DNA from: an uncultured bacterium
GTDB taxonomy: Bacteria; Margulisbacteria; WOR-1; CAVSGV01
DNA length: 32,000 bases
Assembly: GCA_963699255.1 (NCBI GenBank)
Contig: OY969425.1
Location: 1 to 32,000, forward strand
Direction: 5' to 3'
In this document: positions 3,364 to 30,045 of the stretch, piece by piece
Layout of the letters: the number at the start of each line of letters is the position of its first letter
Numbering within the stretch: the first letter of the stretch is position 1
Notes under the pieces: generated by a model
Told to the model about the DNA's origin: nothing
Seen by the model: the letters and a program-made list of their open reading frames with translations, nothing else
Databases searched by the model: none
Program-made: the position numbers and the translations under genes

Positions 3364-3406
3364 CTCCCCTCTGTATATATATCGTCAGAAACCGCTTAAA
3401 ATTTCA
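3364..3406 (-). promoter_or_regulatory. Promoter-like motif copy (TGAAAT-N17-GATATA + TATACAGAGGGGAG)
   Basis: On the minus strand: TGAAAT (3406-3401), 17 nt, GATATA (3383-3378), then ATATACAGAGGGGAG. There are 56 nt to the ATG at 3321. The palindromic TATATATA could also serve the divergent + strand gene (TTAATG-N17-TATATA). Confidence 0.6.
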
Positions 3407-5464: not shown

Positions 5465-6523
5465 TTAAATGATGCCTTTTGCCACCAGGTCTCCGACCTC
5501 AGTAGTAGTAAATCCCATCTGTCCGGCAAGCTGGCTTTTCATCTTCGGGGTGGTTTTCGCTATTGAAGCTTCAATGGCGTTGGCGGCCTTCACTTCTCCA
5601 AGCGTTTCAAGCATCATCGCGCCCGCTCCGATGCACGCTATCGGATTGATCGCGTTCTTTCCGGTCCACATCGGCGCGCTGCCGCCTATGGGCTCGAACA
5701 TCGATACGCCTTTCGGATTGATATTACCACCCGCCGCTACCCCGAGCCCGCCCTGCGTGACGGCGGCGAGGTCGGTTATTATGTCCCCGAACATGTTCTC
5801 TGTCACTATCACGTCGAATATTTCCGGGCTGGCTATCATGTAAAGGCATGTGGCGTCCACGTGGTAGTATTCGCGCTTAACATCGGGATAATCGGACCCG
5901 ACCTCATCAAAGACCCTGTTCCAGAGGTCATACATGTACGTGAGGACGTTCGATTTGCCGACCATCGCCAGCTTTTTCTTTTTGCCGTGCTTTTGTGTGA
6001 AGTCGAACGCGTACCGCATCAATCTTTCCACCTGCGCGTAGGTGTAAATCATCCTCTGCTCGGCGATCTCATTTTTGGTGCCTTTATTTGTCTGTCCGCC
6101 CTGTCCGGAATACATGCCTCCGGTGTTCTCGCGGATGACGGTATAATCGATCTCTTTAGGCCCCTTTCCTTTTATGGGGCACTCGACGCCCGGATAAAGC
6201 TTTACCGGCCTCAGGTTGATGTATTGATCAAGGTCAAAACGGATCTTGAGTAGAAGCCCTTTTTCAAGAATCCCCGGCTTTACTTTCGGGTCCCCGACGG
6301 CCGAAAGATATATGGCGTCGCTTTTTTTGAAATCGGCCATGACCTGGTCCGGAAGAACTTCGCCGGTCCTTAAATATCTCGCGGCTCCGATGTCATGATA
6401 TGTCAGATTCAACTTAAAGCCGAACTTATCCGCCGCCGCCATGATGACCTTGATCCCTTCGGCCATCACTTCCGGGCCGGTCCCGTCGCCTTTTATGACC
6501 GCGATGTTATATGTTTTTGCCAT
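5465..6523 (-). CDS. leuB: 3-isopropylmalate dehydrogenase (isocitrate/isopropylmalate DH family, tartrate-DH-like subgroup)
   Basis: Family motifs are present: [65 protein letters not shown]. The start overlaps the leuD 3' end by 17 nt, with AAGGA as SD. Substrate assignment rests on the leuCD context. Confidence 0.8.
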
Positions 6524-7007
6524 GTATCTTTGTCCTTACATACTCTATGAGCCCGCCCGCCTTTATTATCTGCTGCATGAAAGGCGGGAACGAGGTCGCT
6601 TTATAATTCTTTTTTGTCGTGACGTTCCTTATCTCGCCGATGGTCAGCTCTATCTCGATCTCGTCGCCATCTGTGATGCCGTCCACAGCTTCTTTTGATT
6701 CAAGTATCGGCAATCCTATATTGATGGCATTGCGATAGAAGATCCTCGCGAAAGATTTGGCGATGACCGCCGATATCCCCGCCGCCTTTATCGCAATAGG
6801 CGCGTGCTCGCGTGAAGATCCGCAGCCGAAGTTCTCTCCGCCTACTATGATGTCGTTCACCTTCATCCTGTTAACGAAGCGCGGATCAGCGTCTTCCATC
6901 ACGTGTTTCGCGAGTTCCGCCGGGTCGTGAGTGTTCAGGTACCTCGCGGGGATTATCGCGTCGGTGTCAATATTGTCTCCGAATTTATGCGCTTTCCCTA
7001 ATAACAT
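6507..7007 (-). CDS. leuD: 3-isopropylmalate dehydratase small subunit (short, 166-aa type)
   Basis: [31 protein letters not shown] and [11 protein letters not shown] motifs of aconitase-family swivel subunits. Sits between leuC and leuB. Confidence 0.88.
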
Positions 7008-7020
7008 GGTAACCTTTCTT

Positions 7021-7081
7021 TGTCATCCTGAATTTATTTCAGGATCTCAAATGCGGATTCCGAAACAAGTTCGGAATGACA
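7021..7081. repeat. Nested inverted repeats in the leuC-leuD spacer
   Basis: Hairpin ATCCTGAA (7025-7032) / TTCAGGAT (7038-7045) and hairpin ATTCCGAA (7057-7064) / TTCGGAAT (7070-7077), enclosed by TGTC (7021-7024) / GACA (7078-7081). The two stems are near-copies of each other. Confidence 0.5.
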
Positions 7082-8362
7082 TTATAACTCTTCCGGGCTT
7101 CCGATGCGCCCCAGCACCGCCGATGCCGCCGCGACCGCCACATTTGAGAGATATACTTCCGATTTAGGATGCCCCATGCGGCCCACAAAATTCCTGTTGG
7201 TGGTGGATAACGCTTTCTCGCCTTCCGCGAGGACTCCCATATGCCCGCCAAGGCACGGCCCGCAGGTCGGCGTTGAGACCGCGCATTGCGCGTCTATAAA
7301 GATGTCCATAAGGCCTTCTTTCACCATCTGTTTCACGATCATCTGGGTGGCGGGAAGTATTATCACTCTCAGGTCCTTATGTTTTTTCCTGCCTTTAAGT
7401 ATCTTTGCCGCGATCCTCATGTCCTCGATCCTTCCGTTGGTGCAGGAGCCGATCACCACCTGGTCAAGCTTCACGTTCAGCCTGGATGCCTCGGATATCG
7501 GCTTGGCATTCGACGGCAGGCTGGGGAAAGCGACCTGAGGCTCGATCTCGGCGCAGTTATACTCGATCACCCTGGCGTATGCCGCATCCGGATCGCTCTT
7601 ATATAGTGTATAGCTTCTTTTAATGTTGTTCCTTTTAATGACATCTTTGACATATTTGACGGTAATGTCATCCGGCTCTATTATCCCGTTCTTCCCGCCG
7701 GCTTCAATGGCCATGTTCGCCATGGTGAACCTCTGATCCATCGATAGGGCCTTTATCGCGTCGCCGGTGAACTCCATGGACATGTATCTGGCACCGTCAA
7801 CCCCGATATTGCCGATCGTATAAAGTATCAGGTCTTTTCCCTCGACCCATTTGTTCATCTTGCCTTTGTACACGAACTTAATGGTTTCCGGCACCTTGAG
7901 CCAGACCTCGCCTGTTGCCATGGCCGCGGCCATGTCAGTGGAGCCGACGCCCGTGGAGAACGCGCCAAGCGCTCCGTACGTACAGGTATGGGAATCCGCG
8001 CCTATTACAAGGTCGCCGGGAAGGACAAGCCCGAGTTCAGGGAGCAGCGCGTGTTCTATCCCGACGCATCCGATCTCAAAGAAATTCGTGATATTGAATT
8101 TTCGGGCGAATTCCCTGAGCATCTTTACCTGCTGAGCTGACTTTATGTCCTTGTTCGGCGTGAAGTGGTCGGGGACCAGCGCTATCCGGTCTTTGTCGAA
8201 TACCTTATCCACCCCGATCCTCTCGAATTCCTTTATGGCTGTGGGCGCGGTGATGTCGTTGCCCAGGACAAGGTCTGTCCTGGCATTGATCAGCTCTCCC
8301 GCGGAGACTTTTGATCTGCCGCAGTGGGCCGCAAGTATCTTTTCGGTTATCGTCATTGCCAT
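7082..8362 (-). CDS. leuC: 3-isopropylmalate dehydratase large subunit (short, 426-aa type)
   Basis: Aconitase-family large subunit: [33 protein letters not shown], and the Fe-S Cys motifs GSCTNGR and CGPCLG. No SD before the ATG at 8362, so the mRNA may be short-leadered. Confidence 0.9.
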
Positions 8363-8474: not shown

Positions 8475-8515
8475 TGAAATTTTCGCGTGAAACTGACGAT
8501 ATATAAAGAGGGAAG
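8475..8515 (+). promoter_or_regulatory. Promoter-like motif copy preceding the tandem 900-aa genes
   Basis: TGAAAT 8475-8480, 17 nt, GATATA 8498-8503, then TAAAGAGGGAAG. There are 63 nt to the ATG at 8567, with a small hairpin GACGTT/AACGTC (8538-8553) just before the SD AGGAAGGA. Confidence 0.55.
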
Positions 8516-8566: not shown

Positions 8567-11269
8567 ATGATGATGAATGTTTCAAAAATGACTTTAGGGA
8601 CAAGACAACCGGGTTTGAACCATCCTGTCAGTTATCGGGGGAGGATCCTTTCGCTAATTTCTCCTGAATATGCAATTCACCCGGATTCAGAAAAAATTGG
8701 AAAGATCATACATAATATAGCCCTCTGGCACGCAAGTATCGGAATAAGGACAAATGTTATAATCCCGTATTCCAGTAAACTTGATAACATTAATTGGGAC
8801 CAGATCACATATAACCATCCGCATAATTTCTGCTATAAGGAATATGAGGGCATTCCTGTTTTCGCGATCGGGAAAGACAAGCCTTTTTCTAATGTAATTC
8901 CGCCTAAAGAAACCGGGTATGCCGATCTGATCCATTTTGGGGACGCATTATTATATTTTATGAATCTGAACGACTACAGCAATCATCCAACGGCCTTATT
9001 GCATTTCTTTGATTATCCCATGGGGATCGCCATGGACTACATCAGCAAACAACTTAAAGGGAACCCAATTGCGAGTAATATGATCTTTTCACCAATGGAT
9101 CCGCAAAGAAACTTTCATAAATACAACATGGGAGGAATGGGAGTCGGCATGGAAAAAGTGGATGGGCTCGAAATGGGCGCTAATGTTGCGCATAGCGTCA
9201 TGTTCTGGTCGGATAAGTTTTACAAGGAGCTTCAAGGTAGTCATATGTTCTACGAATTCCTTAGGGTAACTGGCGACAAAGCGGTTAAGTTGCCCGGTAG
9301 CTGGCAGCCTAATGTATTGGATAATATCTCGGAAAAAACATTAAGAGAGATGCAGGAAGTATATATGGGCACGTTATATAAAAAAGGGATAGATAGGTCA
9401 ATACATTTTATGACTGAACCGGACACGAAAATGTTCATGGACAAGGTTTACTACTTCATTCCCGAACCCTCAGACATAGCGAAACCTTCCAGAAAAATAG
9501 TGCTCAAAGATGCTTTAAGGCATGTCGCAAGTGACCTGGACAATATAATTGTCGGTGGACTCAGAGGAGTGAAGATACTTGGCGGAGGAAGGGACAAGGA
9601 TGTGTTCTACGATTACTGGGAGAATCTGGGAGGTTTAACCGCTCTTCTGGAACAGGTCATAGTGGATAACCGGGGGAGAGCGGACGTTGATGTAAAGGGA
9701 GCAAGATACCTTCTTTTGGCAGATGCGGGAGATTTTAAAAGAGGCGGGGTAATGGCCCAGGCGCTAGGAATTGAAGCTCTAAAAAGTTTGACGCCGGAAG
9801 GGGAGAACACACTTGGCATTAATTGTATCAAACAGGCTCCGATCTTTTTCCGTCAGCTGCCTGATCACGGGAAGGGGTGGATAGTTTTTTCCGCTTCGGA
9901 CAATAAATGGCTGCCGGATGGTTCGCCAAAAACGGGGAAAAAATATTTATGGGAGTCAAAGTCCAAGATAATCCTTACCGGGAAGCCGGCCGCCAATGTG
10001 GAGGCTGTAAAAGGCCTGGGTTGTTGGGTCGCTGATGAAGCCGGAAAGATCCAATTGTTCGCGGAGAAAGCTTCGCCGGATGTGGTTAAAAACGCCTTGG
10101 ATAACCTGGGATTGGCAGAGGAAGATATAAACTTGAACCCTTTCGTTTTCGCGATCAAATACGATATTGCTGAAAAAATAGTGAACTTATACAAGGATAC
10201 GCCATGCAAGAAGGACGGAAAAGCTTTTGTGACCACGTATCCCCTGGATATTTCGAGCCATTTTATTTTCCCGACAACGCTTAAAAAGGGGGAATGGCAA
10301 AGGATATACGAGATATTACAGCAGGTCAGAAAAGGCAAGGTGGCTGATGAGGTTTATGATGAAGCTACCGAGAACGGGTTAAATCTGGTCGCGATAGCGA
10401 AAGGGATGAAAAAGTTTGAAAAAGAGAGGATAGGGCAGGTATTTGATAATCTGGAGGATTGGATGATGATATATGAGATGGCGCAGAAAATAAAACTTGA
10501 TGCAAATGATATCGCGGGAGCAAGCATCGGGCCGAATTGCCAGTGGAATGATTACGGGACCCTTGAAGAAATGATCGAAAAGATGTGGATGGCGGCTTTT
10601 GATAACAAGGAGCAGGTCAGATCTGTCGCAAGAAGAAGAACAGGGTTTCCTGAGGACAACAACGATATGAGCGTTGATATGGAACAAATCAAAACGTATG
10701 TAACATTCATTGATCCAGTAACCAATGATGTCATGGATCTCGAGGACGGGGAAATTCCGGAAAAGGTGATAATACAAGATGTTAATTTTGATCATCCGGT
10801 CCAGATCGTTGCCGATAGAGTGATATTGCATGATGTTGTACTGGGAGAGGGAGTGAAAAGGATACCGGCGAATACCATCATTTCCAGAGGGGAAATAGAT
10901 GAGCTGGAAGAAGCTCCCGACCAACCCAAAAGAATATCGCATCAGCCGGCGCTAATATTCAATTGTCATAAAAAGGGCAAGGTCATTGTTTACAGAGGCA
11001 TGGCACACGCATCCCTTAGTCTTGCGTATGTTGATAATGCGGATCTTATCGCACAGGGTTTACATGCATCAGAAACGCCGCTGGCGTTAAGCCCCATATA
11101 TTTCGATCTTAAGGAGGAAATCTTGAAACAGAACAATTATCAACTGTATCCCGGCATTAATCTGCTTGAACCGGGACTGAACATGCTGGATCAGTCGTTC
11201 ATCATAGAAGATGAAAATGGCAAGCCGAAGCTTTTGGGCCTGAACTTTTTCCAGGTCAAGAGCGATTGA
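8567..11269 (+). CDS. Large hypothetical protein, paralog 1 (900 aa): degenerate GT5 glycogen/starch-synthase-like N-domain + unknown middle + hexapeptide-like C-terminal region
   Basis: N-terminal blocks align with GlgA motifs. ILSLISPEYAIHPDSEKIGKIIHNIA..NVIIPYS matches xxxVSSExxPxxKTGGLxDVxxxL..V..P.Y. LLHFFDYPMG matches H.HDW. GANVAHSVMFWSDKFYKEL matches the AD.V.TVS.tYa.E block. The KxGGL loop is replaced by KIGK. Later Gly-rich motifs are ILGGGRD and LLLADAGDFKRGG. About aa 730-775 has 6-residue periodicity (VIIQDV NFDHPV QIVADR VILHDV VLGEGV). Three consecutive ATGs (8567/8570/8573) leave the exact start ambiguous. Confidence 0.8.
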   Translation: MMMNVSKMTLGTRQPGLNHPVSYRGRILSLISPEYAIHPDSEKIGKIIHNIALWHASIGIRTNVIIPYSSKLDNINWDQITYNHPHNFCYKEYEGIPVFAIGKDKPFSNVIPPKETGYADLIHFGDALLYFMNLNDYSNHPTALLHFFDYPMGIAMDYISKQLKGNPIASNMIFSPMDPQRNFHKYNMGGMGVGMEKVDGLEMGANVAHSVMFWSDKFYKELQGSHMFYEFLRVTGDKAVKLPGSWQPNVLDNISEKTLREMQEVYMGTLYKKGIDRSIHFMTEPDTKMFMDKVYYFIPEPSDIAKPSRKIVLKDALRHVASDLDNIIVGGLRGVKILGGGRDKDVFYDYWENLGGLTALLEQVIVDNRGRADVDVKGARYLLLADAGDFKRGGVMAQALGIEALKSLTPEGENTLGINCIKQAPIFFRQLPDHGKGWIVFSASDNKWLPDGSPKTGKKYLWESKSKIILTGKPAANVEAVKGLGCWVADEAGKIQLFAEKASPDVVKNALDNLGLAEEDINLNPFVFAIKYDIAEKIVNLYKDTPCKKDGKAFVTTYPLDISSHFIFPTTLKKGEWQRIYEILQQVRKGKVADEVYDEATENGLNLVAIAKGMKKFEKERIGQVFDNLEDWMMIYEMAQKIKLDANDIAGASIGPNCQWNDYGTLEEMIEKMWMAAFDNKEQVRSVARRRTGFPEDNNDMSVDMEQIKTYVTFIDPVTNDVMDLEDGEIPEKVIIQDVNFDHPVQIVADRVILHDVVLGEGVKRIPANTIISRGEIDELEEAPDQPKRISHQPALIFNCHKKGKVIVYRGMAHASLSLAYVDNADLIAQGLHASETPLALSPIYFDLKEEILKQNNYQLYPGINLLEPGLNMLDQSFIIEDENGKPKLLGLNFFQVKSD

Positions 11270-11334
11270 TGCTGTTTAAAGGAAATGCGGAATTTTAAGA
11301 TCCGGAGTTTGTCAAGTTTTTAGGAGGACTTATC

Positions 11335-14031
11335 ATGGACAGGCTAACAAGGACATCAGGAACAATGAGCCATCCTATCAGTTATCAGGGAAGGACCGTC
11401 TGGCTCGTTTCTCCCGAGCACATTATCCATCCGGGATGCGGGAAAATGGGGAAGATCGTACATGAGATAGCTCTGTCGAACACAAAAGCCGGAACAAATA
11501 CCAATATAATAATTCCATATTCGGAGAAACTGGCTGATGTTAAATGGGACGTAAGTACGCGTAATTATACTCATAATTTTTGCTTTAGGAAGGTTGATAA
11601 TATTAGCATTTTCGCGGTCGGACGCGACCAGCCCTGGTCCGAGGTGGTGCCGGCTCAAGATAAATACTACGAGTATGTACAATTTGCGGACGCGCTGAAT
11701 TATTTTATTCATCTGCACGCTTTTACGCAAGATCCCGCCGCGATCATGCATTTCTTTGATTATCCCATGGGTTTTGCTATGAGCAATCTTAAGAGCACTC
11801 TAAGATATAATGCGAACAATTCTGATCTGATGAACAATATAATATTTTCGCCAATGGATCCGCTTAATTTTAACAAACGATATAATACAGGCGACCTTTA
11901 TAACATAGACGGACTTGAATCGGGCGCTAACGCGGCGCATAAAGTGATGTTCTGGTCAGAGAAATTCTACGATGATATCAAACGAAGCAATAGGTTCCCG
12001 GAGTTTTTAAGCGCGGCCAGCGGCAAAGAGGATATTATGCCCGGCGGCTGGCAGCCCAGAATGACGGAAACGATCCCTCAGGTAACGATACGGGGGATGC
12101 GGGCGGGGTACATGGACACATTGTATAAAAGCGGGCTTGATCGCTCGTTCCATTTTATGGCAAGACCAGGCGTAAAAATGGACAAAGTTTTCTATTTCAT
12201 TCCTGAACCATCCGATACAGGGAAACCTTCCAGGAAATCTGTGATCAGAAAGTCGTTAAGACGCGTCGAGAATGAAATGGATAGTATAGTAAAAAATGGC
12301 ATAGACGGAATTAAGATGCTTGGCGGAGGAAGGGACAATGTGTTCTACGATTACTGGGGGAACCTGGGGGGATTGGTCGCTTTTCTTGAGCAAATGATGA
12401 TTGAGAACACGACCAAAACGGAAGATGAAATAAAAAATGCCAGATATCTTTTCATGGCTGATGCCGGGGATTTTAAGAGGGGCGGCGGAATTGCCCAGGC
12501 AAAAGGAGTGGAAGCTCTAAAAAGCATGACGCCGGAAGGGGATCGCACGCTCGGAATTAACTGCATTTTGCAGGCCCCCGTCTTTTTCCGGCAGCTGCCG
12601 GATGACGGAAAAGGATGGATAGTATACACGGCTTCGGACAATAAATGGATCCCCGACGGCACGCCAAGAACGGGCAATAATTATTTGTGGGAATCAAACG
12701 CTAAAATTATCATCAGCGGGCGGCCGGCCGCAAATGTGGAAGCGGTAAGAGGACTGGGTTGTTGGATCACCGATAAATTCGGCCAGGTCATATTTTTTGC
12801 CGAGAAAGCATCGCCGGAGGTGATCAGACACACCTTAAATAAGTTAGGCCTGAAGGAAGAAGATCTGTGCCTGAACACGTTCGTGTGGGCCATGAAATAC
12901 GATCTTGCCAAAAAGATAGTGGATCTATATAAGAATAAAAAATGCAAGAAGATCATGAAGGGCAAACAAGAAGCAAAATGTTTTGTGACCACGTATCCTA
13001 TGGACATTTCAACTCATTTTATCTTCCCGACAACTCTCACCCGGGCAGAATGGGAAAAAACATACGAAATATTGCAGTATGTTAGAGCGAAAAAGGATAC
13101 CTCCAAATTCAGCAATGAATTTACCGGACGCGGGCTAAGCCTGGTTGAGGTGGCGAAACAAATGAAAGGATTTGAAAAAGAGGGGCCGGGCACTGATCAG
13201 GTCTTTAATGATCTGGATGATTGGATGACCATATATGATATGGCGAGCATTATTAACGAGGATGCAAACGGCATAGATGGAGCGAATATCGGGAAGAATT
13301 GCCTGTGGAACGATTTCGGAGACCTTAAGAGTATGGTTAATGAAATGTATTTTGAAAATTTTTCAGACAATGAATGGGCCAGAAAAGCCGAAAGAACGAG
13401 ATCGGGATACCCTCTGGATAAGAACACTCAGAATGTTGACATGAATGAGATCAGGGACTATGTGAAATTCATAGACCCGGAATCCGGCAAGCCTATGCAG
13501 CTTGCCGAGGGGGAGATACCTGAAAAGGTGATATTAAATAATGTGAGCTTTGATCATCCTGTTGAAATTGTCGCTGACAGGGTAATATTGGATGATGTAA
13601 AGCTTGGGAAAGGGGTCACAAAAATACCGGCAAATACTATCATTGCCAAAGGAGAAATAGAGGATCTGGAAGAAGCTCCAGATCAGTCCGAAACACTTTC
13701 GAAGATGCCGGCATTGATATTCAATTGCCATAAAAAAGGCAAAGTACTTGTTTATAGGGGCATGGCACATGCGTCTCTTAGCCTTGAATATGTCGACCAA
13801 AAAGATCTCAACGAGCAGGGTTTATCACCCTCTGACACGCCACTGACATTAACTCCCATCCTTTTCAATTTAAAAGCACCCATTAATGAGCAAGACGACT
13901 ATATACTGTACCCGGGAATTAATCTGCTTGAACCAGAATTTAGCATGTTAGAGCAGTCGTTCATCATAGAAGATGAAAATGGCAAGCCGAAGCTATTGGG
14001 CCTGACCTTTTTCCAGGTTAAGGGCGACTGA
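11335..14031 (+). CDS. Large hypothetical protein, paralog 2 (898 aa), same architecture as 8567-11269
   Basis: Collinear with paralog 1 over its full length, roughly 55-65% aa identity by eye. Shared motifs include VSPEHIIHPGCGKMGKIVHEIA, HFFDYPMG, MLGGGRD, ADAGDFKRGG and the C-terminus SFIIEDENGKPKLLGL. Strong SD AGGAGG 7 nt before the ATG. No promoter motif in the 65-nt spacer, so it is probably co-transcribed. Confidence 0.85.
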   Translation: MDRLTRTSGTMSHPISYQGRTVWLVSPEHIIHPGCGKMGKIVHEIALSNTKAGTNTNIIIPYSEKLADVKWDVSTRNYTHNFCFRKVDNISIFAVGRDQPWSEVVPAQDKYYEYVQFADALNYFIHLHAFTQDPAAIMHFFDYPMGFAMSNLKSTLRYNANNSDLMNNIIFSPMDPLNFNKRYNTGDLYNIDGLESGANAAHKVMFWSEKFYDDIKRSNRFPEFLSAASGKEDIMPGGWQPRMTETIPQVTIRGMRAGYMDTLYKSGLDRSFHFMARPGVKMDKVFYFIPEPSDTGKPSRKSVIRKSLRRVENEMDSIVKNGIDGIKMLGGGRDNVFYDYWGNLGGLVAFLEQMMIENTTKTEDEIKNARYLFMADAGDFKRGGGIAQAKGVEALKSMTPEGDRTLGINCILQAPVFFRQLPDDGKGWIVYTASDNKWIPDGTPRTGNNYLWESNAKIIISGRPAANVEAVRGLGCWITDKFGQVIFFAEKASPEVIRHTLNKLGLKEEDLCLNTFVWAMKYDLAKKIVDLYKNKKCKKIMKGKQEAKCFVTTYPMDISTHFIFPTTLTRAEWEKTYEILQYVRAKKDTSKFSNEFTGRGLSLVEVAKQMKGFEKEGPGTDQVFNDLDDWMTIYDMASIINEDANGIDGANIGKNCLWNDFGDLKSMVNEMYFENFSDNEWARKAERTRSGYPLDKNTQNVDMNEIRDYVKFIDPESGKPMQLAEGEIPEKVILNNVSFDHPVEIVADRVILDDVKLGKGVTKIPANTIIAKGEIEDLEEAPDQSETLSKMPALIFNCHKKGKVLVYRGMAHASLSLEYVDQKDLNEQGLSPSDTPLTLTPILFNLKAPINEQDDYILYPGINLLEPEFSMLEQSFIIEDENGKPKLLGLTFFQVKGD

Positions 14032-14106
14032 TGTTTTATATTCAATGTTTTCAAAGCCAAGAGAATAGTTTTACGGGTATTTTGAATATTAACGAGATAA
14101 CAAGTT

Positions 14107-17100
14107 ATGGTAGAACGCACTAGGGACATAAGCCATCTGCCTGTAGCGCGGTTCAATTCGCGTTCATGCGGGATCACGTCAAAAATACCCTCAATTAAAG
14201 CCGGCCGTGATGTCGTATCGTCGACTAAAAGAATATTGATCATGTTCAAGCCGGATTGTCTGGCGTACGGAATGGTCCCGGAGACGCTCCAGCTTTTAAA
14301 GAAAGGGCTTGACCGCGAAAAGATAGATGCCCGTTTTGCAGGTCTGGTCCTCCTTAATTTAACGCCTCAGCTGACGGACAGGATATATGCGGAACATGTT
14401 GGAAAGGATTGGTACGAAGGACTATTCAAACCATTCATGACCGCAAAGCACCCGAACGAAAAAGCTGTTCGTGCCCCGATCATCGCGGCAATGCTGGAAG
14501 TAAGAAATGACGCCAGCCGGGATGTTGTCAGCGTGATAAGGAAGAACGTCATCGGCCCCACCGATGTAGAAGAGTACGAAAATAAAGATGAAATAAAGGA
14601 CACATTAAGATACAAACTGATACTGGAAAAAGGATTGTTAACATGGCCGTTCCCGGAGGATCCCAAAGGCCCGAATTACAACAGGATACATTGTTCTGCA
14701 AATGAAAAAATCGCGGGAGATGAACTTTACCCGGTTTTTGGCATAAAAGGCATTTTGTCCAAACTTTATGAACCGTCCGCGGTAAAGGATGTTCTGTCAG
14801 GCTGGAGCCAGCAGGGTTATGCCGATGTCCCCGGCGTGATCAGGATACCGATTCATGAGTATCTTGGGGCTGATCCGGTGATCTTTTCCAGAAAGATCAT
14901 CAGGGCCTTCAGTGACAATGGATGCGTATATAAGGACTTTGATGAGATCAAGGCTGAACAATTGATAAGGTCATTGAATGACATGCGGGAGATGATCCAG
15001 GGCCAGGAGTTTTTTTTTAACAAGGTAACCTCTTCGATCGACCCCACAGATCCCATAAATCCTTTAAAACCAAGAGTTGTAGCAATATTTGGCGCCCCCG
15101 GAAGCGGAAAAACCACCATTTCAGACATATTAAAGAATAAAGGCGTCGTTTCCATTCTGCCTTTGACCGTGAATGAAGAAAGAGAAAAAAGCGGAGCGAC
15201 GGAATATGAGCTCAGATCAAAGACCGAAATATTGCGGATGATCCGGGAGAATGAATTCGTCGGATGGGAAATCCTTGCCGGCAATTATTATGGAATATCA
15301 AAACGGACCGCGGAAATGATCCTGAGATCTTCCGGCAAAACTTTCGCTCTGCTGGCCGGGCCAACAATTGTTTATCCATTAAGGGAAGCGCTCAAGGGGA
15401 AAGCGGACTTTTATCAGGTGATGTTCAAAGTGCCCCCGAATGACCTTGCTTCAAGGATCACAAAACGCGCGACCGTCCGGGACAGGGAAAGGGGCATCGC
15501 TTTATCCCTTGAGACTCAAAAATGGATGGAGGAAAGTTTCGGGAATTTCGACCTCATAACGGAAAACCCGAACAGCGAAAGTGAAACGGCGGCGGCTCAA
15601 AAGCTGATCGATTTTCTGGCCAAGCCCCAAAACGTAGAATTCGACCGCAAAAAAGAAGCTTCAACTCTGGCGGCTACTTATCCATATAATGCCGTGGAAA
15701 TGTTCAAGGACCAGAGACAGAGTTTCAGTAATAAGGATATTGTAACCCTTGAAAAACAAGTCATGTCCCTTGTGGGGACTACAATTGAAGCTATGTACCG
15801 CGCGGTCAGGAGCTCGCTTCCCGCGGAGACGGACCTGGGAGTCGAATTCAATGAATTTTTGTCCGGCTTGATATTGCATACCGCAAAAGTACTGGTCGCC
15901 GGTATTCAGCTTAGATCGTTCCAATATGAAGATATTACCGCGAGCCCGATCAAGTTCGGCAGGATAGGACTGTGCAGCTCAAAAGAAAGGGCGGATAAAC
16001 TTTATAAAAAGCTCAAGGATATCCAGAACAGGATGCCTCTTGAAGAAGAAATGCTTTTTGATCTTGTTCATGATATCGGGAAAATGGAGAACATCATACA
16101 ACATCCCGAAAAAGGTTATGAAATAGCGAAAAGGCTGAAAATGTTCGAAGGGTGGGGGGTTGAAGGGATAGACACCGATGTCGATCTTATTGCCATAAAA
16201 TGCTCGCATCTTATCGGCTCGTATATGTTGCCGGATAATTCGCTTATTGCCGTGGCAGATGAACTTTCCCATAAGGATGTGAAGAGCGTTCTTGCCAGGA
16301 AGGACGGGAGCGTGGACATGGAACGCATGAAAAACTTCCTGGAAAAGATATGTTTTTTCCCGTCCAAGGACGCATCCGGATACAAGGATGGATGGTTGTT
16401 AGTTCTGTTCTCTGAAGGGTATTTTGCCTTTGGAGAATGGCTTTATTCCGTATTCAGCAGGAATTCGGATAATTACGATAACGCGATAGCTGAAATTAAA
16501 AAGAGCAGCGCCGGGTCTAATATGGACAGGATAGCAAAGTGCGTTGCCATGGAGGATGCGGATGCCGATGTCAACGGGCGAACATTCGAATATTACAGGG
16601 ACAATATCGTAATGCCGAACGTCCGGGCCTGCGTTGATGAATGGGTATTCACGCAAAAAGACTGGGATCTGGTCGTGGGGAACCTCCATCATATAAGTAA
16701 ACTCCGTTATTCAACGAACCTGATATGCGATTCCCTGCAGTGGATAGGGGCAAAAGGCGAAAAGATCGAGGACCTCAATAATTACAGGAATATGTTCAAG
16801 CTTTTCGTGATCATGGCTAAATCGCTCATCGCATTCTCAAAGGATCCATCGCGGCCCGGCGATTTTGAGTTCAGGTTCACATATGACGACGGCAAAGAGA
16901 TAATGGGCCCGAAGAATTGGGGGCCGGCAATGGACTTTTGTAATGACCAGCTGGATATTTCAACCGGCGATATTGAAAAAGTCGGCAACAGCATATCAAT
17001 CGTTCCCAAAGAAAAAAGCAAGCTGCCGAACGTGGAAATTACCGAAGAAATCGTGGATGGATGCAGGTTGATCTCCTTCAAGCTTAAAGGTTATTCAGGG

Positions 17101-17121
17101 CAAAATCCCGCTTCAAAATAG
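14107..17121 (+). CDS. Three-domain nucleotide-metabolism fusion (1004 aa): NDK-like + guanylate-kinase-like + HD phosphohydrolase domain + unknown C-terminal third
   Basis: NDK-like region, aa ~41-212: ILIMFKPD, IYAEHVGKDWYEGLFKPFMT, IGPTD, TLRYK, and NRIHCSANEKIAGDEL (compare N.IHGSDSvEsA.rEI; the phospho-His is retained). GMK-like region, aa ~322-505: FGAPGSGKTT P-loop, AGNYYGI (compare GNYYGT), VPPNDLASRITKR, DLITEN; but the SxTTRxxR GMP-binding segment reads PLTVNEER. HD region, aa ~585-715: LHTAKV ... LVHDIGK ... HPEKG. Weak SD, so the start is uncertain. Probably co-transcribed with the paralogs. Confidence 0.8.
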   Translation: MVERTRDISHLPVARFNSRSCGITSKIPSIKAGRDVVSSTKRILIMFKPDCLAYGMVPETLQLLKKGLDREKIDARFAGLVLLNLTPQLTDRIYAEHVGKDWYEGLFKPFMTAKHPNEKAVRAPIIAAMLEVRNDASRDVVSVIRKNVIGPTDVEEYENKDEIKDTLRYKLILEKGLLTWPFPEDPKGPNYNRIHCSANEKIAGDELYPVFGIKGILSKLYEPSAVKDVLSGWSQQGYADVPGVIRIPIHEYLGADPVIFSRKIIRAFSDNGCVYKDFDEIKAEQLIRSLNDMREMIQGQEFFFNKVTSSIDPTDPINPLKPRVVAIFGAPGSGKTTISDILKNKGVVSILPLTVNEEREKSGATEYELRSKTEILRMIRENEFVGWEILAGNYYGISKRTAEMILRSSGKTFALLAGPTIVYPLREALKGKADFYQVMFKVPPNDLASRITKRATVRDRERGIALSLETQKWMEESFGNFDLITENPNSESETAAAQKLIDFLAKPQNVEFDRKKEASTLAATYPYNAVEMFKDQRQSFSNKDIVTLEKQVMSLVGTTIEAMYRAVRSSLPAETDLGVEFNEFLSGLILHTAKVLVAGIQLRSFQYEDITASPIKFGRIGLCSSKERADKLYKKLKDIQNRMPLEEEMLFDLVHDIGKMENIIQHPEKGYEIAKRLKMFEGWGVEGIDTDVDLIAIKCSHLIGSYMLPDNSLIAVADELSHKDVKSVLARKDGSVDMERMKNFLEKICFFPSKDASGYKDGWLLVLFSEGYFAFGEWLYSVFSRNSDNYDNAIAEIKKSSAGSNMDRIAKCVAMEDADADVNGRTFEYYRDNIVMPNVRACVDEWVFTQKDWDLVVGNLHHISKLRYSTNLICDSLQWIGAKGEKIEDLNNYRNMFKLFVIMAKSLIAFSKDPSRPGDFEFRFTYDDGKEIMGPKNWGPAMDFCNDQLDISTGDIEKVGNSISIVPKEKSKLPNVEITEEIVDGCRLISFKLKGYSGQNPASK

Positions 17122-17130
17122 TCCTCAAAT

Positions 17131-17165
17131 TGAAATTTCCAGGAGTTTCATACGATAAATAAAGG
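17131..17165 (+). promoter_or_regulatory. Promoter-like motif copy (TGAAAT-N17-GATAAA)
   Basis: TGAAAT 17131-17136, 17 nt, GATAAA 17154-17159. Only 12 nt separate the -10-like box from the ATG at 17172, which implies a near-leaderless transcript. The motif fills the 50-nt gap after the previous stop. Confidence 0.5.
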
Positions 17166-30012: not shown

Positions 30013-30045
30013 TGAAATTTACGACGAAACCTGCCGATATATATA
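30013..30045 (+). promoter_or_regulatory. Promoter-like motif copy (TGAAAT-N17-GATATA)
   Basis: TGAAAT 30013-30018, 17 nt, GATATA 30036-30041, within the near-palindrome CCGATATATATATGTCGG. There are 65 nt to the ATG at 30107. Confidence 0.5.

Follow-up and report, generated by a model that had tools for sequence, protein, structure and literature searches.

Genes A and B form a tandem pair in the first 32 kb of the single-contig 1.77-Mb genome of an uncultured bacterium of the Margulisbacteria (contig OY969425.1); this stretch of 32,000 nt is the whole of the DNA analysed and is referred to as the window. Each gene encodes a protein of about 900 amino acids (aa), in which a domain derived from the GT5 glycogen/starch synthases is followed by a predicted sugar-1-phosphate nucleotidyltransferase domain and a left-handed beta-helix. 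As the best explanation, to which we give slightly better than even credence, A and B would constitute a hetero-oligomeric nucleoside diphosphate (NDP)-sugar pyrophosphorylase, whose GT5-derived domains would serve binding or regulation and which would supply an activated sugar to the conserved downstream cluster. The two proteins represent a new architecture and a new family built from known domains, and the combination is without a Pfam or NCBIfam model.

Domain architecture and catalytic residues of A and B

The first-pass annotation had described A and B as collinear paralogs of about 900 aa, and this was borne out when the two proteins were compared by BLASTP (518/902 identities, 57%; 75% similarity; E = 0), the collinearity extending from residue 12 through the C-terminus. 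For the part behind the first 250 residues it had offered two readings, a remnant of a GT-B C-domain and an NDP-sugar pyrophosphorylase. To separate these two readings, residues 250-900 of A were modelled alone from an alignment of 15 homologous fragments. The resulting model had a predicted local distance difference test score (pLDDT) of 89.9 and a predicted template modelling score (pTM) of 0.88. Its top Foldseek matches were structures of FKP, the GDP-fucose pyrophosphorylase (9iit, E 3e-11; 9iis, E 8e-11; TM 0.39-0.45 over ~600-630 columns), followed by dozens of bacterial and plant ADP-glucose pyrophosphorylases (AGPases; E about 1e-9 to 3e-9, ~570 columns). No GT-B protein was present among the top 50 Foldseek matches of this model. 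The AlphaFold2 model of full-length A (pLDDT 87.7, pTM 0.85) was matched by glycogen synthases, by the FKP part of 9iis (E 1e-9, 591 columns), and by ADP-glucose pyrophosphorylases.

Of the two readings, the pyrophosphorylase was thus retained and the GT-B remnant was given up. The latter had been placed at residues 250-380, with LGGGRD (A 338-343) taken as LLGxGD and ADAGDFKRGG (385-394) as SRFEPCGL; it was rejected because the hhalign alignment stops at the N-domain and the 250-900 model matches pyrophosphorylases only. Residues 293-380, which are modelled as a beta-alpha-beta-alpha unit and contain LGGGRD, are best read as the predicted base-binding N-terminal part of an FKP-type domain and not as a GT-B remnant. 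By the fold of the model and by its motifs, the region from about residue 293 to 820 is predicted to be a sugar-1-phosphate nucleotidyltransferase followed by a left-handed beta-helix. The hexapeptide-like periodicity noticed earlier corresponds to the beta-rich region at ~716-820, where LbH_EIF2B and Hexapep_GlmU match in the relatives (LbH_EIF2B in five of them). For the small C-terminal domain at 821-900, no known family was matched.

The sequence-level similarity to named families was faint. The fucose pyrophosphorylase family PF07959 matched 9/18 relatives weakly, and no detectable similarity to PF00483 was found. The fragment profile hit RmlA with a non-significant E of 0.18, and the alignment fell exactly at the GGxGxR..K loop and the WxDxGT motif; when the family was compared by hhalign with an ordinary nucleotidyltransferase-beta-helix enzyme of the window genome, nothing but the WxDxGT motif was aligned, at 2.5% probability. 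The part of A and B behind the GT5-type domain is a nucleotidyltransferase as judged by fold and catalytic motifs, and it lies outside the current Pfam family boundaries.

In the crystal-structure study of FKP, the phosphate loop comprises G75/G76, S78, and R79/R80; D136 is the first Mg2+ ligand, Q186-K187 handle the sugar-phosphate and the nucleophilic attack, and K89 and H272 are also listed (PMC11982464). The order and spacing of A387-G388-D-F-K391-R392, K406, D445, E500-K501, and W660-x-D662-x-G664 in A agree with these catalytic residues, the mapping being one of motif and spacing and not of residue-level structural superposition. FKP R79-R80 correspond to A K391-R392, and the spacing is also alike for the Lys, Asp, and (Q/E)K positions; at the second metal/phosphate position, A and B have an Asp where FKP has a His. 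Among the full-length members, which share ~22-27% identity with A, G388, R392, K406, D445, N446, W660, D662, and G664 were invariant in 15/15, and E500 and K501 were kept in 14/15, including both copies in 6/7 pairs. In the 18-sequence alignment, 14/15 invariant columns were located outside the GT5 quarter. Copies A and B keep all the nucleotidyltransferase catalytic positions, and the sole difference in B is the replacement of T665 by Asp. As judged from the alignment, residues are conserved here in the way expected of an active enzyme. The earlier description of an inactivated enzyme thus suits the GT5 half, where the donor loop is lost, and fails for the pyrophosphorylase half, in which every catalytic position is kept. 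The family also has its own helical insert of ~75 residues (561-648) with the invariant residues W577, D631, and W632, and this insert may shape the substrate pocket.

The likeness of the first ~250 residues to the GT5 N-domain was confirmed by three lines of comparison. A profile of the 18-member family matched the solved glycogen/starch synthases (E. coli 2qzs/3d1j, Arabidopsis SS4 6gne, and Agrobacterium 1rzu) with E values down to 3e-16, always over the N-terminal domain only. In the hhalign comparison with the genome's own canonical GlgA (481 aa, with a perfect KTGGL), family positions 27-254 aligned with GlgA 2-268 at 96.6% probability (E 5.7e-10), and nothing was aligned past GlgA residue 268. 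PF08323 exceeded its gathering score in 8/18 family members, with up to 94 bits; neither window protein was among them. The same hhalign alignment supports the two motif replacements that had been read by eye (K(I/M)GK for KxGGL and HFFDYP for HxHDW): the KTGGL of GlgA aligned with EKIGK in A (nt 8693-8704; K43-I44-G45-K46) and with GKMGK in B, and H-x-(H/N)-D-W aligned with HFFDY(P) in A from H146 on (nt 9002-9016). The KTGGL position was conserved in no family member, and the position equivalent to His161 of the E. coli glycogen synthase was F/L/H/W/I across the family. Conservation in the GT5 quarter was mostly confined to Gly, Pro, and aromatic residues, together with H146 and D149, which were kept in 13-14/15 members. 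The profile and fold comparisons (hhalign and the 250-900 model) revealed no GT-B C-terminal domain with its catalytic Glu and Arg/Lys pair.

On this evidence the N-terminal quarter is a genuine GT5 N-domain minus the donor-phosphate loop. Since the KTGGL loop and the GT-B C-terminal domain were both looked for and neither was found, A and B are not counted as GT5 members. Since the loop is lost and no GT-B C-half was detected behind the module, the GT5-derived module is most likely not a glycosyltransferase and would rather be a glycan-, partner-, or regulator-binding domain.

Compared with known systems, the closest counterpart is FKP, the best structural match of residues 250-900, in which a nucleotidyltransferase domain is likewise followed by a beta-helix. 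However, sequence identity to FKP is ~10%; A and B have no GHMP kinase domain, and they carry the helical insert as well as the GT5-derived domain in front. The AGPases (GlgC and the plant small and large subunits) share the nucleotidyltransferase and beta-helix fold and are functionally linked to the GT5 glycogen synthase, whereas A and B are about twice their size. The GT5 synthases (GlgA; 2qzs, 3fro, 6gne; PF08323) have an N-terminal Rossmann domain homologous to that of A and B, but in A and B no Glycos_transf_1 C-domain was detected and a different enzyme follows the N-domain. The features of the locus are given in Table 1.

Table 1. Features of the A/B locus in the window (residue numbers are those of A)
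Feature	Position	Strand	Remark
Promoter-like motif GAAATTT-N12-GACGATA	8476..8501	+	~65 nt upstream of gene A
Other copies of the promoter-like pattern	19395-19420; 30014-30039; 6750-6775; 3380-3405	+; +; +; -	
Gene A	8567..11269	+	Open reading frame, 900 aa; GT5-N-like domain, nucleotidyltransferase, LbH, and C-terminal domain
GT5 glycogen/starch-synthase N-terminal Rossmann domain, degenerate (20-250)	8624..9316	+	Profile and hhalign
Predicted FKP/AGPase-type sugar-1-phosphate nucleotidyltransferase domain (293-715)	9443..10711	+	Foldseek of the 250-900 model
AGDFKR loop (387-392)	9725-9742	+	G388, R392 invariant
K406	9782-9784	+	Invariant
D445-N446	9899-9904	+	Invariant
E500-K501	10064-10069	+	Kept in 14/15
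WNDYGT (660-665)	10544-10561	+	W660, D662, G664 invariant
Predicted left-handed beta-helix, hexapeptide type (716-820)	10712..11026	+	Model strands 734-817; LbH Pfam matches in relatives
Small C-terminal domain (821-900)	11027..11266	+	A/B 70% identical; clade-specific
Gene B	11335..14031	+	Open reading frame, 898 aa; paralog of A, architecture as in A
Fusion of NDK-like, guanylate-kinase-like, and HD parts	14107..17121	+	1004 aa; Pfam and NCBIfam matches
477-aa neighbour	17172-18605		No Pfam match; ELGAGHG motif typical of S-adenosylmethionine (SAM)-dependent methyltransferases

Recurrent pairs and divergence of the two copies

The occurrence of the homologs in pairs was surveyed as the first-pass annotation had suggested, and tandem or near-tandem pairs were found in seven loci: the window, L039 (an A-ortholog and an 893-aa second copy), L014 (904 and 898 aa), G034 (874 and 875 aa), L041 (871 and 864 aa), G021 (940 and 1075 aa), and L019 (903 and 820 aa, with a methyltransferase gene in between). 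A close relative, L001, is certainly single-copy, and one copy was seen in L015, L016, and L020, which lie on short contigs. The L039 copy A looked naturally split into 269 and 635 aa, but the split was dismissed as an artefact, since the scaffold has a run of N at ~1730-1760; because of this run, the database entry P0003 (635 aa) is regarded as a truncated gene call.

In the maximum-likelihood tree, the L014, G034, L041, and G021 pairs were each monophyletic with 100% bootstrap and 99-100% support in the Shimodaira-Hasegawa-like approximate likelihood ratio test (SH-aLRT). The grouping of window A with the first L039 copy had a support of 100/100, and that of window B with the second L039 copy only 79/66. 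The window and L039 pairs appear to derive from one duplication, and the A and B lineages were both retained in the second genome (L039). Five pair clades coalesced separately on the tree. The topology suggests that tandem duplication took place independently five times or more, or else that an ancestral pair was repeatedly homogenised; in both cases two copies seem to be favoured.

In the window clade, B evolves ~2.5x faster than A (branches of 0.35-0.43 versus 0.14-0.15). The identity between A and B was 69-71% in the nucleotidyltransferase core, the beta-helix, and the C-terminal domain, and was lowest, 47%, in the GT5 quarter. Of the fixed differences between A and B (two orthologs per side), 24/49 were located in the GT5 quarter, which corresponds to 10.4 per 100 residues versus 0-7 elsewhere. 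Over conserved A/B residues the fraction of identical codons was flat along the genes, at 0.4-0.7, and the similarity of A and B thus reflects an old divergence under constraint and not recent gene conversion. Recent conversion at the 3' ends was looked for separately and rejected, as no near-identity tract was present in the windows computed (the last ~13 codons lie outside the sliding window).

The pattern of the pairs is the signature expected if a homomer had become a heteromer through a conserved beta-helix interface while the N-terminal domains specialised. Plant AGPase, in which two paralogous subunits make up a heterotetramer, is a precedent for a retained paralog pair; GMPPA/GMPPB and eIF2B gamma/epsilon also work as paralog heteromers, with regulatory members. 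A and B share with the latter proteins the two-domain class of nucleotidyltransferase and beta-helix, and the likeness shown here is one of fold class. In contrast to GMPPA/GMPPB and eIF2B gamma/epsilon, both A and B keep the catalytic residues. The EK motif was lost in one copy only, the 820-aa protein of L019. This protein, P0019 (L019 12148-14610), has EK changed to VR and N524 to G, and its branch in the tree is very long; it may be the regulatory subunit in its lineage.

Gene neighbourhood and proposed function

Each of the two open reading frames is intact with a strong Shine-Dalgarno sequence, and they are separated by 65 nt. The promoter-like pattern GAAA-N14-16-G[AC]CGATA has five copies in the window versus 0.2 expected, and three of them (8476, 19395, and 30014) head gene blocks of the cluster; the copy at 8476..8501 is likely the start of a transcription unit. 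Since a promoter-like motif lies upstream of A and no terminator-like site was found between A and B, the pair and the next genes probably form one transcription unit. No hydrophobic stretch of the membrane-span type was found in A or B, which are best explained as soluble proteins. A complete bacterial 16S rRNA gene is present at 44-1561, at the contig start (Rfam RF00177, 1537 bits), with no 23S in the window.

The pair has a GC content of 44.1% in a genome of 47.5%, which puts it at the 12th percentile of 5-kb windows. The cluster adjoins leuC-leuD-leuB in the window and, in related metagenomic genomes, in L001/L003, L019, and L041, and the family proteins at these loci are ~20-55% identical. 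The locus had been called an island, and this did not hold: because its GC is unremarkable and its leuC-adjacent position is shared by divergent relatives, it is an old resident and not a recent island, and horizontal acquisition was rejected on the same two observations. An anti-phage defence system was also considered and rejected, as the pair has no PADLOC matches and the neighbour a weak P-loop match only.

Downstream of the pair lie the kinase/HD fusion and the 477-aa neighbour of Table 1, the latter 51% identical to its counterpart in L001/L002, and further downstream a Methyltransf_15 protein, an adenylosuccinate-synthetase homolog, three unmatched proteins, and a 1061-aa protein containing GH26. 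Eleven loci (the window, L001, L014, L019, L040, G034, G021, G009, G015, G013, and G018) have a giant P-loop kinase gene next to a family member; its matches are to guanylate kinase, AAA_18, or AAA_33, and NDK and HD parts may or may not be present. Wherever the flank was long enough, the guanylate-kinase-like/HD giant was found next to the family member. PfkB sugar kinases were adjacent in three loci, in one case as a fusion with an ARMT1-type phosphatase; an ordinary NTP-transferase neighbour was found in two loci, and GH26 was in or near two. The PurA homolog is recurrent and is also beside the distant member P0011, with a GH26 gene upstream.

Some further arrangements were seen in the relatives. 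In L031 (G034:C1:222000-241900; features at 6375-8231 and 13632-17138), from the metagenome-assembled genome (MAG) Prado142, a 618-aa NTP_transferase protein precedes the pair; its shorter 399-aa part (L005) gave only faint signs of a beta-helix and of a receiver-like C-terminus. Behind the Prado142 pair are a 1168-aa fusion of PfkB and the ARMT1-type phosphatase and, in the opposite orientation, a guanylate-kinase-like gene of 709 aa. Directly upstream of the G021 pair, a SLOG cluster-4 (LOG-like) protein is encoded (L032, G021:C100, 13844-15217, minus strand). In G000:C1:142719-146640 (L025/L021), an 832-aa open reading frame with an NTP_transferase N-terminus directly precedes the canonical glgA; its C-terminal part is phosphohexomutase-like by eye only, an impression that, if correct, would make the protein a fused enzyme supplying the ordinary glycogen pathway.

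The mutase fusion of a relative (G133, see below), the adjacent sugar kinases, and the GH26 hydrolase of the cluster point circumstantially to a hexose-phosphate substrate, and the resemblance to FKP and the guanylate-kinase/NDK partner point to GTP as the nucleotide. The second module, with its complete catalytic set, would make an NDP-sugar from NTP and a sugar-1-phosphate; on these circumstantial pointers, we propose a GDP-hexose as the most likely product. The GTP would be supplied by the adjacent NDK/guanylate-kinase protein, and the NDP-sugar would feed the downstream polymer-making and GH26 genes. A and B would probably assemble through their conserved beta-helix and C-terminal part into a hetero-oligomer, in which the two GT5-derived domains may be specialised differently. 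The presence of the genome's own canonical GlgA and ordinary NTP-transferases is evidence that A and B would not be part of a housekeeping pathway.

Several points weigh against a pyrophosphorylase of this kind. Even with the threshold relaxed to E = 1, A and B have no Pfam or NCBIfam match; PF07959 was below its gathering score in all relatives (best 26.9 bits versus 34), and the TM-scores were modest, 0.24-0.45 over the FKP and AGPase matches despite a probability of 1.00. The signature loop of the window clade is AGDFKR and not GGxGxR/GGxSRR, the distant members having GGDGER. There is no conserved counterpart of FKP Asp31, and base and sugar specificity are not readable from sequence. With the catalytic residues present in A as well as in B, no division into a catalytic and a regulatory copy is evident; such a division is suggested only for the 820-aa copy of L019. 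Furthermore, the PurA-like protein, the methyltransferases, and the SLOG protein of one relative fit a nucleotide-modifying pathway as well as they fit GTP supply.

This last point leads to another reading, in which A and B would transfer a nucleotidyl group to or from a non-sugar phospho-substrate and, with the kinase/HD giant, the PurA-like protein, and the methyltransferases, would produce a modified guanine nucleotide or nucleoside. The most deeply conserved pairing is indeed that of the nucleotidyltransferase-like protein with the P-loop kinase/HD protein, and the neighbours include the adenylosuccinate-synthetase homolog, a cap-guanine-N2-type methyltransferase, and the SLOG protein. However, fold and motifs, among them the sugar-phosphate lysine of (E/Q)K and WxDxGT, belong to the sugar-1-phosphate nucleotidyltransferases, and the PGM/PMM fusion, the PfkB neighbours, and GH26 point to sugars. 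We regard this reading as unlikely.

A regulatory pseudo-enzyme pair, to which we assign a slightly smaller chance, would do no more than bind a nucleotide or nucleotide-sugar and serve as a control or scaffold for the neighbouring enzymes, as GMPPA or eIF2B gamma/epsilon do. Paralog pairs of the nucleotidyltransferase and beta-helix class with non-catalytic members are well known. LbH_EIF2B is the LbH model matched by the five relatives, and the altered signature loop of the window clade would also agree with a binding role. FKP has a third, possibly allosteric GTP/GDP site (PMC11982464), which suits such a role as well. Nevertheless, the catalytic-type residues are strictly invariant in both copies across members that are ~22% identical, as in active enzymes, and the EK motif is lost in one copy of one locus only (P0019).

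Slightly less probable again is a coupled synthase, in which the GT5 half would still contribute to glycosyl transfer. The nucleotidyltransferase domain, or else a partner protein, would stand in for the GT-B donor half, and the NDP-sugar, once made, would pass straight to a glycan acceptor bound by the GT5 half. The compact full-length model (pTM 0.85), the retention of H146 and D149 of the HxHDW region, the Foldseek alignment of ~416 columns to a whole glycogen synthase, and the existence of split GT-B enzymes such as Alg13/Alg14 are consistent with it. However, KTGGL is absent in every member and the His161 position is variable; the glycogen synthase alignment has a root-mean-square deviation of ~22 A and is no rigid two-domain match. 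A trans-encoded GT-B C-half of the Alg13/Alg14-like type was looked for in the cluster by Pfam and none was found, the 477-aa neighbour looking like a SAM methyltransferase by its ELGAGHG. The boldest proposal, which we consider the least probable, is a new glycan-building enzyme in which a pyrophosphorylase replaces the GT-B donor half and activation and transfer or priming are joined in one heteromeric machine with its own GTP-regenerating kinase/HD partner, defining an undescribed polysaccharide or glyco-nucleotide pathway of the Margulisiibacteriota.

Distribution of the family and its significance

A phmmer search of A and B against all PDB sequences gave nothing. Among 5.8 billion clustered proteins, four sequences were found, A and B being two of them, and an exhaustive HMMER search of 1.84 billion representative proteins gave 20 clusters, 16 of them at E <= 1e-10 and mostly of 800-900 residues. 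The relatives are carried in the database as 'hypothetical protein [Candidatus Margulisbacteria bacterium]', and the named members all belong to the Margulisiibacteriota; one relative genome, the MAG 'Candidatus Margulisiibacteriota bacterium Prado142', is of the class of the window genome. The homologs are thus unannotated, and fold similarity to GT-B enzymes exists, so that neither of the two findings named beforehand as refuting the first-pass annotation was made. A literature search found no description of the combination of a GT5 half with an FKP-like pyrophosphorylase.

The full architecture was present in 4/146 genomes of the phylum (G000, G034, G021, and a fragmented G027), and nearly all other matches were the ordinary GlgA of ~480 aa. 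In five genomes of the phylum, the nucleotidyltransferase core without the GT5 quarter was found inside larger proteins (1212-2042 aa), in G133 only its C-terminal part. The 2042-aa protein of G133 (L038, G133:C7, 7783-13908, minus strand) carries PGM/PMM domains I-III at 885-1340 and the family C-terminal part at 1671-1957; the family match spans from the helical insert to the LbH, and the nucleotidyltransferase core matches only marginally. The gene is followed by an open reading frame of 2592 aa.

With ~20 clusters in 1.84 billion representative proteins, the A/B family is among the rarest, and A heads a cluster, conserved but unexplained, of an uncultivated phylum that is sister to the cyanobacteria. 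The repeated retention of tandem copies may offer a natural example of how a homomer becomes a heteromer. That related bacteria keep the tandem pair repeatedly suggests a two-subunit enzyme feeding a sugar-polymer pathway. If the enzyme activity proves true, the activated sugar would be identified, and this would be a first clue to what the cluster as a whole produces.

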